In this document: in pieces, positions 45,172 through 54,090 of the stretch
Layout: each line of letters starts with the position of its first letter
How positions within the stretch are numbered: the first letter of the stretch is position 1
NCBI GenBank assembly: GCA_016933575.1
Contig: JAFGAR010000101.1
Location: forward strand, 129,296-193,295
Direction of reading: 5' to 3'
Length of the DNA: 64,000 bases
Source of the DNA: Candidatus Thorarchaeota archaeon
GTDB lineage: Archaea; Asgardarchaeota; Thorarchaeia; Thorarchaeales; Thorarchaeaceae
Notes under the pieces: model-generated
The model's input: only the letters and a program-made list of their open reading frames with translations
Told to the model about the DNA's origin: nothing
Databases searched by the model: none
Made by a program: the position numbers and the translations under genes

Positions 45172-45804
45172 TTAGTTGCCCAAGCATGTTGAACAAGTAT
45201 TACAGCCTAAGTCAAAAGCTTTTGAATTGACATCAACTGTCTTTGAGGGAACTAGGGCTAATAGTGCTTTTTTGACAATATTTGCACTAATTGGAAAGTC
45301 GGCACATGCTACGGTAGCACCAATGAGAACCGAATTCTCGGTTCGAGCATTTCCTGCTTCCAAAGCCAAATTGAGAGAATCTAAGAGAACCACATGATCT
45401 GTGACCTGATTTAGTCGTTCCATGATTTGTTCGACCGTAATGTATTTGGTTTTCTTCTCCTTGTCCAAAGCTACAGTTTTTGTTTCTGTCACAGAGGGCA
45501 TGATTCGATTACTCATGATTACTACGCTATCTTCTTTGAGATATTCTATGTATCTCAGTGCTTCACTAGCTTCCATTGCAATCATCATATCCGCTTTGCC
45601 ATAAGGAATAAGAGGTGATATTGGATTGCCCATTCGGAAATGGACATAGATTGACCCCTGCCTTTGTGAGAGACCATGCTGCTCGCCTGTCATGACCTTG
45701 AGTTCTGAATCAACAGCTGCTTTTCCAAGGATTGCTGACAGTAGCATTAGACCCTGACCACCAACTCCACAGAAGAGGATATTGTATGTATTCTCTTTAT
45801 CCAT
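45172..45804 (-). CDS. iorB: Indolepyruvate:ferredoxin oxidoreductase beta subunit
   Basis: GVGGQG, EQHGLSQRQGS, EALRY; adjacent to iorA. Confidence 0.92.
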   Translation of the reverse strand: MDKENTYNILFCGVGGQGLMLLSAILGKAAVDSELKVMTGEQHGLSQRQGSIYVHFRMGNPISPLIPYGKADMMIAMEASEALRYIEYLKEDSVVIMSNRIMPSVTETKTVALDKEKKTKYITVEQIMERLNQVTDHVVLLDSLNLALEAGNARTENSVLIGATVACADFPISANIVKKALLALVPSKTVDVNSKAFDLGCNTCSTCLGN

Positions 45805-47705
45805 TATTTCTCCACCTCCAGATGTCTGGGTGCATCAACAGGACACACTTGTCTACATTCCAAGCAACCATCGCACAGGTCCTGTTGGATAATCATCTTA
45901 TGGTCCAATTCGTCTATTGTAATTGCAGGACAGTAGAACTCCTTTACACAAGCATAGATACCCCGACATGTGTCTTTTACATTCTCACTCGGGATTATCT
46001 TTTCTCCACCCTGTTTCTTGAGACGATCTCCATATAGTGCGCATTCTCTTCTAGAGATAATTACATTGAAACCATCTCGATTGATTGCATCCTTTATTGG
46101 AGTTATACAATCACGAGTCTCATATGGATCAATAATTGTTACAGAATCCGCATCAAGAGCTTCGAACAGCTTTTCCATGTTTATCTTTCGAGCTGGATGC
46201 CCTCCAGCATTGAATGGTGAATTGGGATTATACTGTTGACCAGTCATAGCAGTTACACTATTGTCCAAGACGAAAAGGGTCACATTCGAATTGTGATGGA
46301 TAAGATTGACAATCCCAGGTAGAGCTGCATGATATAACGTGCTATCTCCAACCATTGCTATCACCTTATCTTCTAAAGCCATCTCCATTCCTGCAGAAAC
46401 TCCAAGTGAGGCTCCCATCGCTAACATGGAATCACTAAATTCATTCGGTGGAAGGAATGCCATACTATAGCAACCTATGTCGTTGTTGAATACAATTTTC
46501 TCTCTGATTCTCAGCTGTTGCAGAGCCTGTCGAAATGCCCATAATGTACCTCTATGAGGGCATCCCGGACAAAAGATGGGGGGTCGCTCTGGAAGAATAT
46601 CTTTGAGTCTTGATGCCTTTGCAAGAATAGCATCATAATCTGCACTCACCTTCTTCCCGAGAATCTCAGCCAGAGCCTTTTCGACAATTGGAACATTGTA
46701 CTCAAGCATTTCACTGAAATGTCCAGTCTTTTTGCCAAGAATTGTAAGATTTGGTTTGACCGTGTGTGCTAGTGCTGCAATTCGTGTCTCAAGGTATGGG
46801 GTTAATTCTTCTACTACAATAAGTGTGGACAATGATTTCAAAAACTCAGAGAGTTTCTTCTCTGGCAATGGGAAAATGCTTCCGAGCTTGAATATTGGCA
46901 ACTCATAATTAAGATTCTGCATTGCTTCCAGTGTATGAAGATAACAGACACCAGAAGTAAGAATCCCCACATTGCCGCTGCCTGGTACAACTCTATTGAA
47001 TTCAGTTGTCTCCATTTCTTTTTTGATAGCTTTATTCTTTTCCAGTAATTTTGCCTTGAGTGCCCTTGCGACTGAACCAACTGTAAAGTACTGCCCTTTG
47101 ACATCTTGCCACTTGTTCTTCTTGAAAGCTGTTCTATTCAATTTTCCAAGTTTGACCATTCCTCTCTGATGATTCACTCGAGTCGTAGTTCTAAGGATGA
47201 CAAGCGTCTTATGTTTCTCAGAAAGCTCGAACGCCCATTTGGTCATATCAAGGGCTTCCTGAGCTGTGGCAGGTTCGAGCATTGGCACATAGGCGGCTTC
47301 TCCGAAGTAACGTCCATCTTGTTCAGACTGAGACGAGTGAGCATATGGATCATCTGCAATTAAACAGACACATCCAGCATTAAGTCCAGTATATCCTATA
47401 CTAAACATCGAATCACTGGCAACATTCATTCCGACACTCTTCATAGATGTAAATGACCTCTGTCCAGCCATTGATGCTCCTGCAACGGTCTCAAGAGCTA
47501 CTTTCTCATTCGCTGAGATATGCATCTTGTAATCTCCAAAGTGATCTATAACTTCACTAAAAGTATCCAGAATTTCAGAGGTGGGAGAACCAGGATAAAA
47601 CGCAACAATCTTGACATCTGATTCTAAAGCTCCACGTACGACCGCTTCATTTGCAAGCATAAGTGCATAGCCAGTGTCAGTCCGTTTGACATCCTCTACT
47701 GTCAT
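45804..47705 (-). CDS. iorA: Indolepyruvate:ferredoxin oxidoreductase alpha subunit
   Basis: YPGSPTSEI, NEKVALE, DDP...SSQSEQD, RPPIFCPGCPH, DIGCY, GDST, C-terminal ferredoxin CDGCLECRQVCP. ORF track start is 47726. Confidence 0.95.
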   Translation of the reverse strand: MTVEDVKRTDTGYALMLANEAVVRGALESDVKIVAFYPGSPTSEILDTFSEVIDHFGDYKMHISANEKVALETVAGASMAGQRSFTSMKSVGMNVASDSMFSIGYTGLNAGCVCLIADDPYAHSSQSEQDGRYFGEAAYVPMLEPATAQEALDMTKWAFELSEKHKTLVILRTTTRVNHQRGMVKLGKLNRTAFKKNKWQDVKGQYFTVGSVARALKAKLLEKNKAIKKEMETTEFNRVVPGSGNVGILTSGVCYLHTLEAMQNLNYELPIFKLGSIFPLPEKKLSEFLKSLSTLIVVEELTPYLETRIAALAHTVKPNLTILGKKTGHFSEMLEYNVPIVEKALAEILGKKVSADYDAILAKASRLKDILPERPPIFCPGCPHRGTLWAFRQALQQLRIREKIVFNNDIGCYSMAFLPPNEFSDSMLAMGASLGVSAGMEMALEDKVIAMVGDSTLYHAALPGIVNLIHHNSNVTLFVLDNSVTAMTGQQYNPNSPFNAGGHPARKINMEKLFEALDADSVTIIDPYETRDCITPIKDAINRDGFNVIISRRECALYGDRLKKQGGEKIIPSENVKDTCRGIYACVKEFYCPAITIDELDHKMIIQQDLCDGCLECRQVCPVDAPRHLEVEK

Positions 47706-48074
47706 GAAAAGACCTCTCATTATCAACTTGAGTTATCCAGTATCCGTCATTTTCAAACATAAGGATTCGGAAATGACGAAGAAACTCGAATTCTTAGGAT
47801 TTATTCAGTTCCTCGTCTGTCGATTTTGTGAACGCGATTAGTCGAAGTATCTATATTTACATTGCTGATAGAATTCAAACGGGATCATTCAACATCAATG
47901 CGCAAGGACGTGCCACACTCATATTGACCTTAGAATTCAATGCCCAGAATGTAAAGGCAAAGTCTTGATTTATTTCGTGCAAATAATGCCTATAAGGCTC
48001 AGAAAAATAACAGTTATGCTTACAGTGCGTTGTAGATAGTATAGAATTTCATTTCATAATAAGGAGTCAAAAAA

Positions 48075-48359
48075 ATGCATCTGATGTTCTCCTGCCCTGA
48101 ATGCTCTTCAGGTGCTGTAATTGAGTTAACTGATGAAGAGGTCAGCTCGATAAAAAGTACAATCAAAGAAAGCGGCAGATCTCCCACTCTACTCACAAAG
48201 TGTGAAAATGGGCATGAACTACTAGTGACACTCTACTTCAGAGATGATGAACTAGGAGTTCGTGATATTGCAGTCCCAATTGGGACAAGCAAGAAGGAAG
48301 AGAAACCAAGCAAAAAGCTGTCGGGTGAACTTGATTGGGTAAAGGATGTTTTTGGGTGA
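48075..48359 (+). CDS. Small Zn-ribbon protein (CPEC...CENGH)
   Basis: GGAG RBS, CxxC plus CxxxH ligands; first gene of a four-gene operon. Confidence 0.75.
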   Translation: MHLMFSCPECSSGAVIELTDEEVSSIKSTIKESGRSPTLLTKCENGHELLVTLYFRDDELGVRDIAVPIGTSKKEEKPSKKLSGELDWVKDVFG

Positions 48360-48363
48360 TACA

Positions 48364-48735
48364 ATGGCAGTAACATTAGTAGCTAGAGTTCAACTGACAA
48401 CGATGGAACCGACTGTCCTCTATCCGATTGATGGTGGAGATGAACAACGAATTGCTATGTTAGCTGGAATTGTCCAGATAGTCTCAACTGCTCTTGAGAG
48501 AACGGATGATGCTGAGAAGGCAAATATGCACTTCATGAAATCAGAGAGAGGCGTCATTGGGTATAGCAAAAAAGGCTCTTCCGTCATTATTTGTGAAGGC
48601 GATTCTGAGTCGGAAACAAGCGATGCGCTTAAAGCTGTATTGGATTCAAAAAATGGTTCTAGTACTGATATCTCAAAGAAGATTGATAAAATCATTCAGC
48701 AACGCGGCAAGGAAATAGGTGATCTGTGGAAATAG
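48364..48735 (+). CDS. Small longin/roadblock (profilin-like fold) protein
   Basis: GGTGA RBS. Pattern of beta-beta, helix (IAMLAGIVQIVSTAL), three strands, helix, ~120 aa. The fold call is an inference. Confidence 0.55.
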   Translation: MAVTLVARVQLTTMEPTVLYPIDGGDEQRIAMLAGIVQIVSTALERTDDAEKANMHFMKSERGVIGYSKKGSSVIICEGDSESETSDALKAVLDSKNGSSTDISKKIDKIIQQRGKEIGDLWK

Positions 48736-48750
48736 ATTTCTCGGGAGGCT

Positions 48751-50142
48751 ATGACAACAATGGATTTCTCACTTTCGGTATTAGTAGCAGGAACACTCTC
48801 TACAACAATTCTATTCTTATCTCTCTTAGTCTATTATAGAAGACTTAATGGAATCTCTGACAAACTCACTAAGGAGACTCTACTCTCTCTGAGAGTTTTT
48901 GGATTCTCAATACTTTGTCTTGTAGCTATGTTTCCAATGGGACTCATTGTTCCTGAATTCGCACAAATTTTGACTGGAGCTTCATTATTTGGAATGCTAG
49001 GTTCTCAATTAGCACTAGCAGTTGGCGACAGAAGCAAGATGAGAAAATATGCCTCTGTATTCTTTTTTATGCTCCTCTTTCTTATAGGTGAGACAATTGC
49101 TAGAATGGTAATAGTTCCTTATCCATTACCAGCAATCACCATGATGATTGTGTTGGCGGCTCTTTCGGTAGCATCACTCATAGGAGCTATCTATGTGGTT
49201 CGGGAATCTCCATCTCCCTTTACTGTATCAATGATCATCATTGTTATCTTTACAGTAATTGCAGGACAGACCTCAACGCATGGCTTTATTTCAACTGTTC
49301 CGCAATATTTCATGCTACAAATTCTTCCCAACATAGTAGCTATTGGTATAACCGCTTCAATGCTGAAACCTTGGAGAAACATCATCACCATTAGTATGAG
49401 TGCACTGATTGGAACTGTTGGACCTGCACTCTTCATTCCGGCATTTATCGCTGGAAATATGACCATCTTTCTGTTCACCATCAGTCTAACTTTTGCTTTA
49501 TTCTGTTTGATAATTCCTCTGGCTTTTTTCCTGCAACAAGCTGTCGAAACACGTGCATCAACAGCACTCTATATTTCGATATCACTTGTTTCGATTGGAC
49601 TTCTTGCTCTTACTCACGGTAACAATTTCTCAATAGCCTATAGTGCAATTGGAGCATGGGATGAAACTATTCTTTTCATTGACTGGTTCTTTGGTTTACT
49701 GGGAGTAAGTGCCTTCACAATGGCAGCCATTGCTTCAAGTTTTTCAGCTAATGTAAGACATGCTAGTCGAGAGATAATAATTGGAATTGCCAGTGGTCTT
49801 CTCGTACTAGGCCATCCTATTGTTCGATGGGTAGAATTCGATGGAGAACTGATACAGAGGTGGGAACTTGATCCCTTATACCTTGGCATCTTTGCGTTGC
49901 TCATTATTGCTTTTATCGTGTTCTTCAGGGTCTCTTACCAACTTTGGAAGGTAGGTTCCGGGCGAGCTGGATTGAGATTCATATTCTTCATGCTCGCAGC
50001 CCTCTTCCTTGGGATTGTAGCAATGTTTGCAGATCTAATAGCTCTTCAGATTCTTGTGCCTCTACTCCTTCTCTCAGGAGTTATGCTCATACTTAGTAGT
50101 CCGAAAAAGAATCCGTTCTCACAAACATATCAAACCAAATAG
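48751..50142 (+). CDS. Polytopic membrane protein (~15 TM; possible 7TM+1+7TM arrangement)
   Basis: GGGAGG RBS, about 15 hydrophobic segments, no transporter signature recognised. Confidence 0.75.
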   Translation: MTTMDFSLSVLVAGTLSTTILFLSLLVYYRRLNGISDKLTKETLLSLRVFGFSILCLVAMFPMGLIVPEFAQILTGASLFGMLGSQLALAVGDRSKMRKYASVFFFMLLFLIGETIARMVIVPYPLPAITMMIVLAALSVASLIGAIYVVRESPSPFTVSMIIIVIFTVIAGQTSTHGFISTVPQYFMLQILPNIVAIGITASMLKPWRNIITISMSALIGTVGPALFIPAFIAGNMTIFLFTISLTFALFCLIIPLAFFLQQAVETRASTALYISISLVSIGLLALTHGNNFSIAYSAIGAWDETILFIDWFFGLLGVSAFTMAAIASSFSANVRHASREIIIGIASGLLVLGHPIVRWVEFDGELIQRWELDPLYLGIFALLIIAFIVFFRVSYQLWKVGSGRAGLRFIFFMLAALFLGIVAMFADLIALQILVPLLLLSGVMLILSSPKKNPFSQTYQTK

Positions 50143-50163
50143 AATGTAAGTTAAATCAAGAAA

Positions 50164-50721
50164 GTGAAAACAATGACGATAATCAAGGCTGTTGTCTTAG
50201 GTGATTCGGAAGTTGGAAAGACCAGTTTCACCAAACGGTGGACACAAGGCACGTTTCCTAATCCAGAAATGCTCAAGACAACAGTCGGTGCCTCTTTTGA
50301 TACTCTAAAGACTACTCTATTGAATGGAACTACTGTCACGTTAAGTCTCTGGGATTTTGGTGGGCAAAGACGTTTTATCGAAGCACTCAAGGGGATGATT
50401 GTTGGGGCGAAGGTCGGACTCTTCTTTTTTGATGTGTCGCATCTGGCGAGCCTAGATAGTCTTTACAACTATTGGGTCCCTCTCGCTCAGGAAAACGGTA
50501 ACTTTGATTTTATGGGTGGAGATGGTGCGAGATTTTTGTTAGTGGGAAACAAAATTGATCTGCTCTGTGATGACTGCAATTCTTTTGACAAGGTCAAGGA
50601 TGAGATGGAAGTCTTTACAAAACGCTTCGGTATCGACACAACTCTGGTCTCAGCAAAGACAGGAGTAGGGATTGAACAATTAGATTTCAAGTTCAGACAG
50701 ATCATTGAGAAAGTCCTCTAG
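50164..50721 (+). CDS. Small Rab/Roc-like GTPase
   Basis: G1 GDSEVGKTS, G2 TTVG, G3 WDFGGQ, G4 NKID, G5 SAK; no C-terminal prenylation motif. Confidence 0.92.
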   Translation: MKTMTIIKAVVLGDSEVGKTSFTKRWTQGTFPNPEMLKTTVGASFDTLKTTLLNGTTVTLSLWDFGGQRRFIEALKGMIVGAKVGLFFFDVSHLASLDSLYNYWVPLAQENGNFDFMGGDGARFLLVGNKIDLLCDDCNSFDKVKDEMEVFTKRFGIDTTLVSAKTGVGIEQLDFKFRQIIEKVL

Positions 50722-50819
50722 CCCACATAGAACCAATTCTTTTTGTTTCGCTGGTAATTGGTATAATAGCCTTTACCTGTTCATTTTCACTTTTCTAAGC
50801 GAGTAAACTTTATTGTATA

Positions 50820-51296
50820 CTATCCACCAGGACTACCATGCCATGGAGAATCTTTCCACATGGTGTCCCAGATCATGTCTTCGGTGAGGGTTTCGGGTTC
50901 AATGACAGTCTTATGGAGTTCTTTCAAGAGAGCGTGATGTCTCAATTCATCTTCTCGAATCATACTAGCAATTGTCTTGACCTGTTCATCGTCACTCTTC
51001 TTGACGAGCTCTGTATAGGTTTCAACAGCCTGCTCTTCCATCTTGATGTGTGCTTCAATTCCTTTAGCTATCTTGTCTCGTTCCTTTTCACTGATGAAAG
51101 GTGTTGGTCCCTCTACTGCTTTCTTTAGGGACTTCAGTAATGCAGCATGCTTCTGAGAATCTGTAGAGATTCCAAGAAGTAAATCTTTGACAAAGGCATT
51201 ACCAAGCTTCTCAACATTTTCTTTCACAATCTCAATGATCTTGTGCTCCAATGAAATCTGCTTATCTATGAACCTAAGAGTTTCTTCTTTGTTCAA
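50820..51296 (-). CDS. Ferritin-like domain protein
   Basis: QISLE...DSQKH and HIKME...DELRHH; paralog of 41989..42465. Confidence 0.8.
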   Translation of the reverse strand: MNKEETLRFIDKQISLEHKIIEIVKENVEKLGNAFVKDLLLGISTDSQKHAALLKSLKKAVEGPTPFISEKERDKIAKGIEAHIKMEEQAVETYTELVKKSDDEQVKTIASMIREDELRHHALLKELHKTVIEPETLTEDMIWDTMWKDSPWHGSPGG

Positions 51297-51457
51297 TCTG
51301 GTACACTCCAGTCGTTGATAGGATACAGTTCCTTCATTTCACTTAAGACTATTCACTAATGGTGTAATTCTGGACTCATTTGTGGATTCTTCAAAATGTA
51401 TATCAGTGATAGTAATATTGTAACTTTCACGTCTGTAAAGATGTGGTGATATTAGAT

Positions 51458-51700
51458 ATGCCAAAAGCGATCATTTACACCGCGCCTGACTGTCCACATT
51501 CAAAAAATCTCAAGGATTTTCTAAAGGAAAACAATATTGATTTTGAGGAAAATAATATCTTGAAATCTAAAGAGATAGCATTGGAATTGAAAGAAAAGAC
51601 CGGTCAGATGGGGATACCAGTAGCCATCATTCAGGGTGAAGTATTCATTGGTTTTGATAGACGTGTAGAACGTAGAATTAAACGTCAGGTGGGAGTGTGA
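51458..51700 (+). CDS. Glutaredoxin/NrdH-like protein (CPHS)
   Basis: IYTAPDCPHS, TGQMGIPV, IGFD. GGTGA RBS before ATG 51458. Confidence 0.88.
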   Translation: MPKAIIYTAPDCPHSKNLKDFLKENNIDFEENNILKSKEIALELKEKTGQMGIPVAIIQGEVFIGFDRRVERRIKRQVGV

Positions 51701-51704
51701 AGGA

Positions 51705-52640
51705 ATGTACGATTTAGTAATAATTGGTTCCGGTGTGACGGGCTATGGGGCTGCTATGTATGCAGCTAGACTTGATCTCAGCATTGCAGTTATTGGTGAT
51801 GTAGATGGAGGTACTATTACCCTAACAGATGATGTAGCAAACTATCCCGGTTACCTCCAACTTACTGGAAAGGAGCTATCTGAAAAAATAAAGGAACATG
51901 CACTTGACTATCCGGTCTTTATCGAATCTGGAACTGTCACAGATATATTTCGATGCAAGGAGAATTGCTTCTATGTTGTCACAGAGAACAAATCATTTCT
52001 TACAAAGTCAATCATAATCGCAACAGGTATGAAGGAGCGTGAACTCGAAGTACCAGGACATGACGAGTTAAAAAATCGGGGTGTAAGTTACTGCGCGTTA
52101 TGTGATGCTCCACTCTATAAGGACAAGATAGTAGCTGTTATTGGAGGGAGTGATAGTGCTGCAAAAGAAGCACTTCTATTGGCGAAATATTGTCCAAAGG
52201 TCTATATCATCTATAGACGGGAGAAGATTAGACCAGAACCCATTAATGCAGCTAGAATTGAAAGAGAACCAAAGATTGAGATTATTTCAAAGACAAATGT
52301 GACAGAGATACTAGGAACTAATAAGGTCACTGGAGTAAAATTGGATAGACCCTACAACGGTTCTGATGTTTTGGGTCTTGATGGTGTTTTTGTAGCAATA
52401 GGAGGAATACCCTATTCAGGACTCGCAAAGAAGTTGGGAGTAGAGGTCAATGAAAAGGGTGAGATCAAGATTGACCGCTCCAGTCGTACCAATGTCGATG
52501 GCGTATTTGCCGCAGGCGATGTTGTGGATAGCGAGTTCAAACAGGCAATAACAGGAGTTGCAGAGGGTGTACATGCAGCTTATCAAGCATACAAATATGT
52601 GAATGAGAACGAATTCATCTTTACCTATCAACAAGAATGA
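51705..52640 (+). CDS. trxB: Thioredoxin reductase
   Basis: GSGVTG, IIATG, GVSYCALCD, GGSDSA, FAAGD, KQAIT. Confidence 0.9.
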   Translation: MYDLVIIGSGVTGYGAAMYAARLDLSIAVIGDVDGGTITLTDDVANYPGYLQLTGKELSEKIKEHALDYPVFIESGTVTDIFRCKENCFYVVTENKSFLTKSIIIATGMKERELEVPGHDELKNRGVSYCALCDAPLYKDKIVAVIGGSDSAAKEALLLAKYCPKVYIIYRREKIRPEPINAARIEREPKIEIISKTNVTEILGTNKVTGVKLDRPYNGSDVLGLDGVFVAIGGIPYSGLAKKLGVEVNEKGEIKIDRSSRTNVDGVFAAGDVVDSEFKQAITGVAEGVHAAYQAYKYVNENEFIFTYQQE

Positions 52641-52671: not shown

Positions 52672-54090
52672 TCACAGAGATTGAAGTTTGACCCTAAAGG
52701 TAGCCCCTTTCTTTGTCTTGTCATGTATCAGCTCGATACTTCCATCATATGCTTCTACCACCTTACGACAGAGATAGAGCCCAAAACCTTTGCCTGAAGT
52801 GGAGACTCCTTTTCCAAAAAGGTTGTCCTTTATGCTAGTTGGAATTCCAGGACCGTTATCGGAGACCTCGATAATTACTGAATTCTCTATTTTCTTTAGG
52901 ACAATTGATACCTCAGCTTGTGGCCCTGCATAGTCGATTACATTTCTTAGGAGATTAGTCCAGACCAAGGGAAGAAGTCGACCAGCGCTTGCATTGAGTG
53001 ACTCTTGTCCTGTTGTGTTGGAGATATTGATCTTTAGTCTTGGATTAGTCAATAGAGCTTCATCTTTCACTCCATTCAACATAGTCACAATGTCAGCTTC
53101 GTAAAATTCGGGTGGGGCTTGAAAGAGATCAAGAAGTTTTGCCATCCTCTGTGCAGCAGTTTGCACGACATCAAGGAAGTTAGAGGATTCAGTTGTGTCA
53201 TGCCTTGAAAGTCTGTGTGATTCGATTTGGGTCAATATTAGGTGAAGATCACTTCTTAGGTCATGTTGGAGTAGATTCGCATAGAGTTCCAGATCCCGAT
53301 TTGATCTCTGCAATTTTAGATTTGCAAGATATGATTCTGTAATATCCATTGTAGTTCCGAAGAACCTTGTTATCTCTCCATTTTCATCATGCTCACTCTC
53401 TCCAATTTCATGAACGTATTTTTCATTCCCATCACTAAGACGAATCCGAAATACAATATCGAATGGTGCATGTTCACTAATTGATTTCTCAACAGCATCC
53501 TTTACACTCTGAACATCATCTGGATGAATAAAATCATAAAACGTATCCGGATCTACGGGTTGAGGGTCAATGCCAAAGATATGATAGAGCTCATCAGACC
53601 ATAGATGAATGTTTTCCTTAATCCGCCAGTCCCAGTTGCCTATATGAGCTATTCTCTGTGCTTCATTGAGCGTCTTCTCGCTTCTCTGAATTCGTTCTCG
53701 CGCCCGGATTCTACCTGATATATCTCTGGCAATGGAAAGAATTGCCGGAATAGCTTGAAAATGCAAAAAAGTGCTATTTACTTCAACAGGTATTTGTTTT
53801 CCTTCTTTTGTCCAATGAATACTCTCAAACATTATCCTCTTGCGTTCTTGTAGGTCTTCTATGAGAGTGGCTGAATCCTTGGAATTATCAGTTTTATCAA
53901 TATCTCGAATTCTTAATCGCATCAATTCTTCTCTTGAGTAACCAAGTCTCTCGCACATAGTTAGATTGACGTACAGGATTTCCCCAAATGATGTATGGAT
54001 TATTATGCTATCATTTGCACTATCAAATAATTGAGAATAGATATCCTCCCCATTATGCACAATATTATTTGGAATAGAATCATTTGTCAT
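52672..54090 (-). CDS. Cytoplasmic PAS-PAS sensor histidine kinase
   Basis: Two PAS/PAC domains, H-box QHDLRS, N-box NLLRNVIDY, DNGPGIP, GFGLYLC. Confidence 0.92.
   Translation of the reverse strand: MTNDSIPNNIVHNGEDIYSQLFDSANDSIIIHTSFGEILYVNLTMCERLGYSREELMRLRIRDIDKTDNSKDSATLIEDLQERKRIMFESIHWTKEGKQIPVEVNSTFLHFQAIPAILSIARDISGRIRARERIQRSEKTLNEAQRIAHIGNWDWRIKENIHLWSDELYHIFGIDPQPVDPDTFYDFIHPDDVQSVKDAVEKSISEHAPFDIVFRIRLSDGNEKYVHEIGESEHDENGEITRFFGTTMDITESYLANLKLQRSNRDLELYANLLQHDLRSDLHLILTQIESHRLSRHDTTESSNFLDVVQTAAQRMAKLLDLFQAPPEFYEADIVTMLNGVKDEALLTNPRLKINISNTTGQESLNASAGRLLPLVWTNLLRNVIDYAGPQAEVSIVLKKIENSVIIEVSDNGPGIPTSIKDNLFGKGVSTSGKGFGLYLCRKVVEAYDGSIELIHDKTKKGATFRVKLQSL

Follow-up and report, generated by a model that had tools for sequence, protein, structure and literature searches.

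Which regulator serves which small GTPase in an Asgard archaeon, and how does a GTPase without a lipid anchor gain access to a membrane? Eukaryote-like small GTPases number in the dozens in Asgard genomes, alongside many longin and roadblock proteins, and both the pairing of GTPases with regulators and the membrane access of the unlipidated ones are an open problem; genome layout usually gives no GTPase–regulator pairing in these archaea (PMC10933270). Here we analyse a 64,000-nt window (contig C78:129296-193295; 'the window' means this whole stretch) of a 3.47-Mb Thorarchaeota (Asgard) metagenome-assembled genome (MAG), which is 85.5% complete and holds 26 Ras-family matches. At positions 48075-50721 of the window, four genes encode a zinc ribbon, a longin-fold protein, a polytopic transmembrane (TM) protein and a Rab-like GTPase. 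The four are conserved as a unit to which a separate GTPase lineage belongs, and we judge it somewhat better than even, at roughly 55%, that they make up a dedicated, co-inherited four-component small-GTPase switch working at the membrane. The parts of the unit, with the seven-helix (7TM) bundles of the TM protein listed separately, are as follows.

48075-48359, + strand: gene 1, 94-residue Brz-type zinc beta-ribbon protein (PF23454 E 3.4e-5, under the gathering cut-off)
48364-48735, + strand: gene 2, 123-residue longin-fold protein by its model and structural matches, without a Pfam family
48760-50142, + strand: gene 3, 460-residue membrane protein with 15 modelled helices (463 residues from an alternative ATG at 48751)
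48766-49359, + strand: predicted N-terminal seven-helix bundle of gene 3, residues 6-203, the more variable half (GABA-B 7TM match)
49372-49452, + strand: predicted linker TM helix of gene 3, residues 208-234 (model and topology)
49459-50097, + strand: predicted C-terminal seven-helix bundle of gene 3, residues 237-449, the more conserved half (ADGRL3 match)
50173-50721, + strand: gene 4, 182-residue Rab-like small GTPase (185 residues from a GTG at 50164; PF00071, PF08477 and motifs)

The window had been read once before from its letters alone, and much of that sequence-only reading of the locus holds. The four open reading frames (ORFs) are co-oriented on the + strand, as it had said, with limits of 48075-48359 (94 residues), 48346/48364-48735 (129/123 residues), 48751/48760-50142 (463/460 residues) and 50164/50173-50721 (185/182 residues). 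Because homologues in the orthologue alignments begin at MAV or MVV (gene 2), MDF (gene 3) and M-x-I-x-K (gene 4), the likely true starts are 48364, 48760 and 50173. With these starts the intergenic gaps are 4, 24 and 30 nt, so that of the gaps of 4-21 nt given earlier the first stands and the other two do not. Shine–Dalgarno-like sites lie before the first three genes (AGGAG before 48075, GGGTGA before 48364 and GGGAGG before 48760), in line with the ribosome-binding sites already called there; that of gene 4 is weak (AAGTGA). A sigma-70-style promoter scan is uninformative in an archaeal host. The operon stretch turned up in its probable source metagenome only and in no RNA data set, and no contig of the two metatranscriptomes of the source study covers it.

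Do these four genes belong together? The TM-protein family is known from Asgard archaea only, with 63 representatives among 1.84 billion proteins, and among 400 Asgard species genomes it is confined to the host family, in 39 of 85 genomes and 14 genera. Across these 14 genera the order zinc ribbon, longin, TM protein (in some cases followed by a second TM protein) and GTPase is kept in every locus inspected, at identities of 27-70% for the TM protein, 51-73% for the GTPase, 39-68% for the longin and 40-78% for the zinc ribbon, while the flanking genes vary among lineages. The three most distant members of the TM family come from MAGs labelled Odinarchaeia and Asgardarchaeia, and there too all four homologous genes stand in the same order between unrelated flanks. 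Conservation of gene order in relatives, the first condition on which the sequence-only reading had staked its proposal, is thus borne out even in distant MAGs. The arrangement is far from chance because the order recurs in every related locus inspected, down to about 15-27% identity of the TM protein. That the genes are chance neighbours without a functional link is accordingly hardly credible: more than 40 loci, which span several Asgard lineages and have unrelated flanks, without exception contain the same four families side by side.

Copy number varies within this order. In many genomes two tandem TM paralogues lie between the longin and GTPase genes, as in L015 (6404-9089), L026, L028, L030, L031, L034, L036, L037 and L042, and some genomes with such a pair have a single zinc ribbon, longin and GTPase; two whole modules stand in tandem in L011, L018 and L020.

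The product of gene 4 is a Ras-superfamily small GTPase, matching PF00071 (Ras) at 79.5 bits (cut-off 21.6) and PF08477 (Roc) at 63.9 bits (cut-off 27). It carries G1 (GDSEVGKT), the switch-I TT, G3 (DFGGQ), G4 (NKID) and G5 (SAK) with the catalytic Gln intact, and G1, the TT, DFGGQ, NKxD and SAK are invariant across 23 orthologues. None of these 23 has a C-terminal Cys or an N-terminal Gly2, the window copy ending in IIEKVL; the earlier description of an intact Rab/Roc-type GTPase without a lipidation signal therefore stands. The closest solved sequences are Rab28, Ypt7/Rab7 (E about 1e-21) and a crystallised Thorarchaeota Rab (Thor-Rab, 7ezb), but a Rab in the strict sense carries a C-terminal Cys prenylation motif on a hypervariable tail, which this protein does not have, and for that reason we call it no more than Rab-like. 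In a tree of 26 module GTPases and the 19 other full-length small GTPases of the host genome, a single branch with a Shimodaira–Hasegawa-like approximate likelihood ratio (SH-aLRT) support of 90 sets all 26 module GTPases apart, and the branch holding the 23 from Thorarchaeota has a support of 99. The module GTPases being separate from the 19 others, the module has a GTPase lineage of its own.

What could regulate this GTPase? The protein of gene 2 matches no significant Pfam or NCBIfam family. Its AlphaFold2 model, built from 24 orthologues (predicted local distance difference test, pLDDT, 78.9), has the topology beta-beta-alpha-beta-beta-beta-alpha-alpha, which is the longin order, with strands at residues 3-10, 16-20, 56-60, 63-70 and 73-79 and helices at 27-45, 82-94 and 100-122. 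In a Foldseek search of the PDB the best 50 rows are all roadblock, LAMTOR, MglB or longin structures (E about 1e-3, probability 1.0). The 50 best matches of this and of a second structure search, independent of Foldseek, are all of these kinds; the second returned longins of Rab GEFs (guanine nucleotide exchange factors) and others, namely the DENND1A longin (Z 10.2), CPLANE (Z 9.3) and a Loki longin (8yqg, Z 8.8), and the longins of TRAPP and Mon1-Ccz1 are also among the full-length matches. These longin matches reach Z 8-10.2 over 105-120 residues, and roadblock structures align to residues 1-98 only. On its model, then, gene 2 encodes a longin-fold protein outside any named sequence family, with the strand and helix order, the five-stranded sheet and the full-length alignment to solved longins that mark the fold. 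It does not qualify as Roadblock/LC7, a fold of the order alpha-beta-beta-alpha-beta-beta-beta: the model has no N-terminal helix, and PF03259 appears in only 2 of 24 members, at E 0.077 or more. Of the named longin families PF19036 (Fuz_longin_1), PF13774 (Longin) and Sedlin/Sybindin, none is found at E <= 1 in the 24 family members; in a feature search the protein lies near Asgard clusters named after the Fuz_longin_1 domain (score 0.90). The sequence-only reading had called this small alpha/beta protein longin- or roadblock-like, and the model and two independent structure searches settle it as longin.

A Rab-like GTPase beside a longin would also suit a quite different use, in which the module marks or remodels a membrane domain, for polarity or a form of proto-trafficking, and relays no outside signal; a longin GEF would then load the GTPase at a TM landmark, much as Mon1-Ccz1 serves Rab7 and RomRX/MglB serves MglA. 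Ypt7/Rab7 being among the closest solved relatives of the GTPase speaks for this, as do the Z scores of 8-9.3 between the longin and Mon1-Ccz1 or Fuzzy-Inturned, both of them tri-longin Rab GEFs, the proximity to Fuz_longin_1 clusters and the sub-threshold PF19036 matches of longin-like proteins in variant modules (E 0.0018 and 0.059). Yet the module is not accompanied by genes for effectors, coats or tethers, and its flanks differ by lineage; it is accessory within its family; and cultured Asgard archaea have no documented internal membranes (PMC10933270). We regard a membrane-domain role as quite unlikely.

Gene 1 may offer a link between the parts. The protein runs from CPxC through GRSPT to C-x3-H, followed by a variable linker rich in K, E and S and by a C-terminal D-W-x3-F-G that ends every orthologue. 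The CPEC/CENGH zinc ribbon reported earlier is confirmed in that C7, C10, C43 and H47 are invariant or nearly so in the family; these residues are the predicted zinc ligands. Over its first ~50 residues the protein resembles the Brz zinc beta-ribbon family, matching PF23454 at 24.8 bits for the window copy against a cut-off of 27.9 and at E <= 0.01 for 23 of 27 orthologues (best 6.3e-7). A profile of gene 1 against PDB sequences gave a best E of 0.57, to a Loki roadblock, which is not significant. The D-W-x3-F-G tail behind its charged, variable linker looks like a docking peptide.

A reduced form of the module bears on how the protein is divided. Three loci of one genus (L081-L083, in G375, G377 and G372; genomes 87-90% complete) have a zinc ribbon and GTPase pair, and the module longin and TM protein were not found in these genomes. 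The reduced-form zinc protein has a basic tail in place of D-W-x3-F-G and is followed directly by a module-type GTPase, which suggests that the zinc-ribbon body is tied to the GTPase and the tail to the longin and TM part. Separately, in L015 (5703-5760), L026 and L028 the called zinc-ribbon gene begins after CPEC, and the open frame extends upstream through '...LRILFQCPEC'; the start of these genes is probably unrecognised or non-canonical, and their first metal ligands would not truly be missing.

The match of gene 1 to Brz suggests that the zinc ribbon might be a transcription regulator of its own operon, with the GTPase–longin pair and an unrelated membrane protein merely co-transcribed. 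Brz of Halobacterium salinarum regulates bop, an adjoining 7TM-protein gene, and is thought to act in a protein complex (PMC2253796, PMC3184054). The precedent of a Brz gene beside the 7TM-protein gene that it controls, and the reach of the family match across most gene 1 orthologues, speak for the idea, but unrelated passengers would not be expected to stay linked over very deep divergence and through changes of order, and an invariant C-terminal peptide motif is typical of a protein-docking tail. Brz itself, moreover, is taken to work within a protein complex, and DNA binding by it has not been shown. We consider this explanation very improbable. The likeness that remains is that of a small CPxC zinc beta-ribbon protein encoded beside a 7TM-protein gene (PMC2253796, PMC3184054); gene 1 differs in lying under the Pfam gathering cut-off, in an extra 40-residue tail ending D-W-x3-F-G and in partnering a longin and a GTPase where Brz has Bat and Brb.

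What, then, is the membrane protein? Gene 3 matches no Pfam or NCBIfam family, transporter and enzyme families included. A model built from 19 orthologues (pLDDT 85.2; predicted template modelling score, pTM, 0.85) has 15 helices, arranged as 7TM (residues 6-203), linker (208-234) and 7TM (237-449), with a beta-hairpin in an outer loop of the C-terminal bundle (residues 360-369). The linker helix brings the chain back outside in the model, so that both bundles have the same orientation. The loops carry 17 Lys and Arg residues on the predicted inside and 2 on the outside; the topology would therefore be N-out/C-in, with both bundles oriented as in G-protein-coupled receptors (GPCRs).

Taken separately, the halves resemble 7TM receptors. 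The C-half (residues 235-462) aligns to ADGRL3 (8jmt_A) at Z 15.3 and a root mean square deviation (rmsd) of 4.5 over 213 residues, and the N-half (residues 1-207) to the GABA-B 7TM domain (9jqx_A) at Z 14.2 and rmsd 3.9 over 196 residues and to a designed GPCR-like fold (8oyy_B) at Z 13.8. All 50 top rows of a wide structural search of the halves with VIA-align are 7TM receptor folds. In the Atlas search the C-half matches unannotated bacterial 7TM proteins at a TM-score by target of 0.60-0.70 and HisKA_7TM proteins at 0.38-0.49, and the N-half aligns with a 7TMR-DISM diguanylate cyclase over 191 residues (rmsd 4.2). Other 7TM-fold matches are microbial rhodopsin (Z 10.5), OST-alpha (Z 11.0) and alkaline ceramidase (TM-score 0.37/0.49). 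The whole model retrieves only weak rows from the PDB with Foldseek (E 0.037 or more), and rows for secondary transporters (MFS, MATE/MOP, MurJ) come out at probability 0.08-0.23 and TM-score 0.12-0.20. Both halves have a GPCR-type 7TM fold at the level of the fold only, with Z near the helical-bundle background, and none of 7tm_1/2/3, PF16927 and PF07695 is found at E <= 10 among 19 family members.

By its model, gene 3 thus is a receptor-like tandem-7TM architecture, for which we do not claim homology to GPCRs. The sequence-only reading had proposed about 15 TM helices without a transporter motif and a GPCR-like layout, both of which agree with the model, the loop charges and the structural matches. 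Its scheme of 7TM, linker helix and 7TM holds as an architecture; the internal repeat that it raised is not detectable in the sequence, where hhalign pairs only 50 columns of the two half-profiles, out of register, with a probability of 0.9% and an E of 0.061.

The halves evolve differently, with a mean column identity of 69% in the C-half and 53% in the N-half, whose helices 3-4 are the least conserved part of the protein. The best-conserved loops are cytoplasmic (residues 151-156, 204-210 and 258-269), and the C-terminal bundle has conserved polar residues in the membrane or close to it (H289, N291, N292, D304, D311 and Q263). A ceramidase/PAQR-type enzyme was considered and rejected: with only one invariant His, there is no such metal site.

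How might the four proteins work together? The unlipidated Rab-like GTPase would be brought to the membrane by the tandem-7TM protein, on whose cytoplasmic face the best-conserved loops 151-156, 204-210 and 258-269 are the candidate contact face. The longin domain would serve as the platform that sets the nucleotide state, as GEF or as GTPase-activating protein (GAP), in the way that longin and roadblock proteins do for Rab, Rag and MglA. The zinc-ribbon protein would be an adaptor, its body with the GTPase and its tail with the longin and TM part. The tandem-7TM protein is most likely the input, a putative sensor, because no other part evolves as fast, because its N-bundle varies most and because two copies of it can accompany a single GTPase. 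Among possible outputs is Brz-like control of transcription. We favour such a switch because longin and roadblock proteins act as GEF or GAP platforms in MglB, Ragulator, Mon1-Ccz1, DENN and GATOR1, and because the bacterial conservon, described below, provides a precedent.

Contact among the parts is hypothetical. In a prediction of all four chains as one complex, with the TM protein as the scored partner and the pairs not separable, the median ipSAE (interaction prediction score from aligned errors) was 0.36 (runs 0.43, 0.29 and 0.36). Replacing the TM protein brought the score to 0.00 in both controls, and replacing the GTPase gave 0.31. These values speak neither for binding nor against it, and the physical coupling of any pair in the membrane-coupled switch is a postulate.

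Several points weigh against such a switch. The 7TM matches, at Z 14-15, exceed only marginally the levels that unrelated helical bundles can attain, and the Foldseek E-values of gene 3 are weak. Its loops are all short, with no ectodomain and no recognisable ligand site. GEF, GAP and mere scaffold roles of the longin are not distinguishable by sequence, and the link of the zinc-ribbon tail to the longin and TM part comes from one loss event. Finally, the module is missing in about half of the host-family genomes, including 14 of 27 of the host genus (completeness 74-97%), and is therefore accessory.

Some of these points would also suit a TM protein that is the target and not the sensor: a channel, transporter or membrane enzyme, with its activity or assembly under the control of the GTPase and its longin and zinc-ribbon partners. 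Very short loops without an ectodomain would be natural in such a protein; pumps, transporters and enzymes with a 7TM fold are known too, as the microbial rhodopsin, OST-alpha and alkaline ceramidase matches illustrate; and the C-terminal bundle has its conserved polar residues in or near the membrane. Known transporter folds nevertheless match poorly (TM-score 0.2 or less), no transporter or enzyme family is found in Pfam or NCBIfam, and the single invariant His does not make a metal site of the ceramidase/PAQR type. A fast-evolving, duplicated TM protein beside a slow-evolving, single GTPase also suits an input better than a fixed effector. A target role is possible but, on this evidence, unlikely.

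Within the favoured reading, that of a dedicated GTPase switch at the membrane, a bolder version would make the tandem-7TM protein a true receptor for a ligand or stimulus, controlling the nucleotide state of its own Rab-like GTPase through the longin and the zinc-ribbon adaptor. This stronger version is doubtful, and we put it forward tentatively.

Does the module match a described system? A literature search found no description of this operon, and a 2026 preprint lists GPCR-like and 7TM structural clusters for Asgard archaea without gene context. The sequence-only reading had gone further and held that no described system matches, which is too strong, since actinobacterial conservons are a close functional analogue. 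The conservon (CvnA-D; Mfp operon) has four genes, which supply a membrane sensor (the histidine-kinase-like CvnA), a roadblock protein (CvnB), a GEF-like protein and a small GTPase (CvnD), and has been proposed as a prokaryotic G-protein-coupled switch (PMC13343842, PMC13621833, PMC11343762). What the two four-gene operons have in common is a polytopic membrane input, a small alpha/beta regulator from the roadblock/longin superfamily, one further small protein and an unlipidated Ras-superfamily GTPase of their own. The Asgard module differs in having a tandem 7TM protein without a histidine-kinase or HATPase domain, a longin topology in place of roadblock, a Brz-type zinc ribbon in place of DUF742/CvnC, a Rab-like GTPase and an Asgard host, and sequence homology between components is limited to the G domain. 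Searches with Pfam and NCBIfam gave no match to HATPase_c, Robl_LC7 or DUF742 in any of the four proteins. With all conservon-defining domains missing, the module is not a conservon member and has only the operon logic in common; by analogy of that logic, the actinobacterial conservon is the closest described system.

Other comparisons concern single parts. In MglA-MglB and the Asgard roadblock and longin systems, a small GTPase gene likewise adjoins that of a small roadblock/longin-superfamily regulator, and the Foldseek matches of gene 2 include structures of MglB and of Asgard roadblocks. Here, in contrast, gene 2 aligns over its full length to longins while roadblocks cover residues 1-98, and a membrane protein and a zinc ribbon are obligatory. 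In the Lokiarchaeon MK-D1, according to Tran et al. (2024), a GTPase gene as a rule does not share an operon with a roadblock or longin gene; their lists of longins cover Loki and Odin and have none for Thor (PMC10933270). With the tri-longin Rab GEFs (Mon1-Ccz1, Fuzzy-Inturned/CPLANE and HPS1-HPS4) and DENN, the module would share a longin as direct Rab platform, at Z 8-10.2 over 111-120 residues, and a GTPase with Rab7/Ypt7 among its closest solved relatives. It differs in having a single 123-residue longin where those have a three-longin subunit and, in the window type, no significant PF19036 match, and a GEF role is putative.

In eukaryotic lysosomal nutrient-sensing systems of the kind LYCHOS/GPR155-GATOR1-Rag and SLC38A9-Ragulator-Rag, a polytopic, partly GPCR-like protein is linked through longin and roadblock regulators to unlipidated GTPases. 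The Foldseek search with the whole gene 3 model has LYCHOS chains at its top, though at weak scores (E 0.037 or more, TM-score 0.26-0.30, rmsd 15-17), and LYCHOS joins a transporter-like domain to one 7TM and a DEP domain where gene 3 has 7TM and 7TM. The Rag GTPases also carry roadblock domains of their own, unlike the module GTPase. The prokaryotic modules 7TMR-DISM_7TM (PF07695) and HisKA_7TM (PF16927) are, as proposed for gene 3, seven-helix membrane inputs of signalling proteins and pair with its halves in the Atlas search; they differ in the want of any sequence match, and gene 3 has two tandem bundles, no fused cytoplasmic output domain and partners encoded as separate genes.

A search with the zinc-ribbon profile also retrieved more distant arrangements. 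Type II modules occur in the same archaeal family and in another Asgard family (L088 in G355:C1, L089 in G343:C14, L090 in G313:C8 and L086 in G001:C50), in the order GTPase, zinc ribbon, longin-like, TM or zinc ribbon, longin-like, TM, GTPase. Their TM proteins are ~460-505 residues long with 12-14 predicted TM helices and are barely recognised by the type-I profile; their longin-like proteins are those with the sub-threshold PF19036 matches given above. Compared by hhalign, the type II and window-type TM proteins align with a probability of 5.5% and E 0.007, colinear over 265 columns, which is suggestive only of homology, and the longin-like protein aligns with the window-type longin at a probability of 0.1%. 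Only the zinc-ribbon and GTPase parts are demonstrably related to those of the window-type module. Pairs of a zinc ribbon and a longin-like gene were found as well.

The surroundings of the operon in the window hold two further features of note.

50737-50748, + strand: T-rich tract 3' of the last stop, read directly in the sequence; a likely archaeal transcription end
47872-48039, + strand: start-less 55-codon frame resembling a zinc ribbon of the other subtype (tblastn against fetched loci, E 4e-4 to 1e-3)

The start-less frame sits in the 348-nt gap upstream of gene 1 and carries C-x3-C-H ... CPEC-KGK with no ATG, GTG or TTG ahead of the motif. In tblastn against a small set of loci it resembles the N-terminal CPEC end of the other-subtype module zinc-ribbon genes, and it is probably the relic of a duplicated or recombined module. 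Divergent to the operon upstream lies a two-subunit 2-oxoacid (indolepyruvate-type) ferredoxin oxidoreductase (45172-47726, - strand), whose position is kept only in L009/L010. Downstream, a gene for a 158-residue rubrerythrin/ferritin-like protein (50820-51296, - strand) converges with the operon end; it is present also in L009, L011, L013 and L015 and not in more distant loci, and it is probably local synteny outside the module. Glutaredoxin-like and thioredoxin-reductase-like genes (51443-52640, + strand) and a PAS sensor histidine kinase gene (52672-54090, - strand) lie just downstream, and in L009, L011 and L015 redox genes and FIST-PAS-GAF kinases are likewise near the module. The PADLOC defence models match none of the four proteins.

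The module offers a fixed set, in which a single GTPase lineage comes with a single longin, a zinc-ribbon protein as putative adaptor and a single membrane partner; each of the four proteins is small enough for expression and reconstitution. It is a rare, testable combination of membrane partner, regulator and switch in close relatives of eukaryotes. If the receptor version were true, it would be a native pathway from receptor to small G protein in Asgard archaea, and a possible relative or forerunner of the eukaryotic couplings of 7TM proteins to GTPases through longin and roadblock proteins (LYCHOS or SLC38A9 with Rag) and of GPCR logic. Should the tandem-7TM protein prove to be a receptor, the coupling of 7TM proteins to small G proteins through longin domains would predate eukaryotes.

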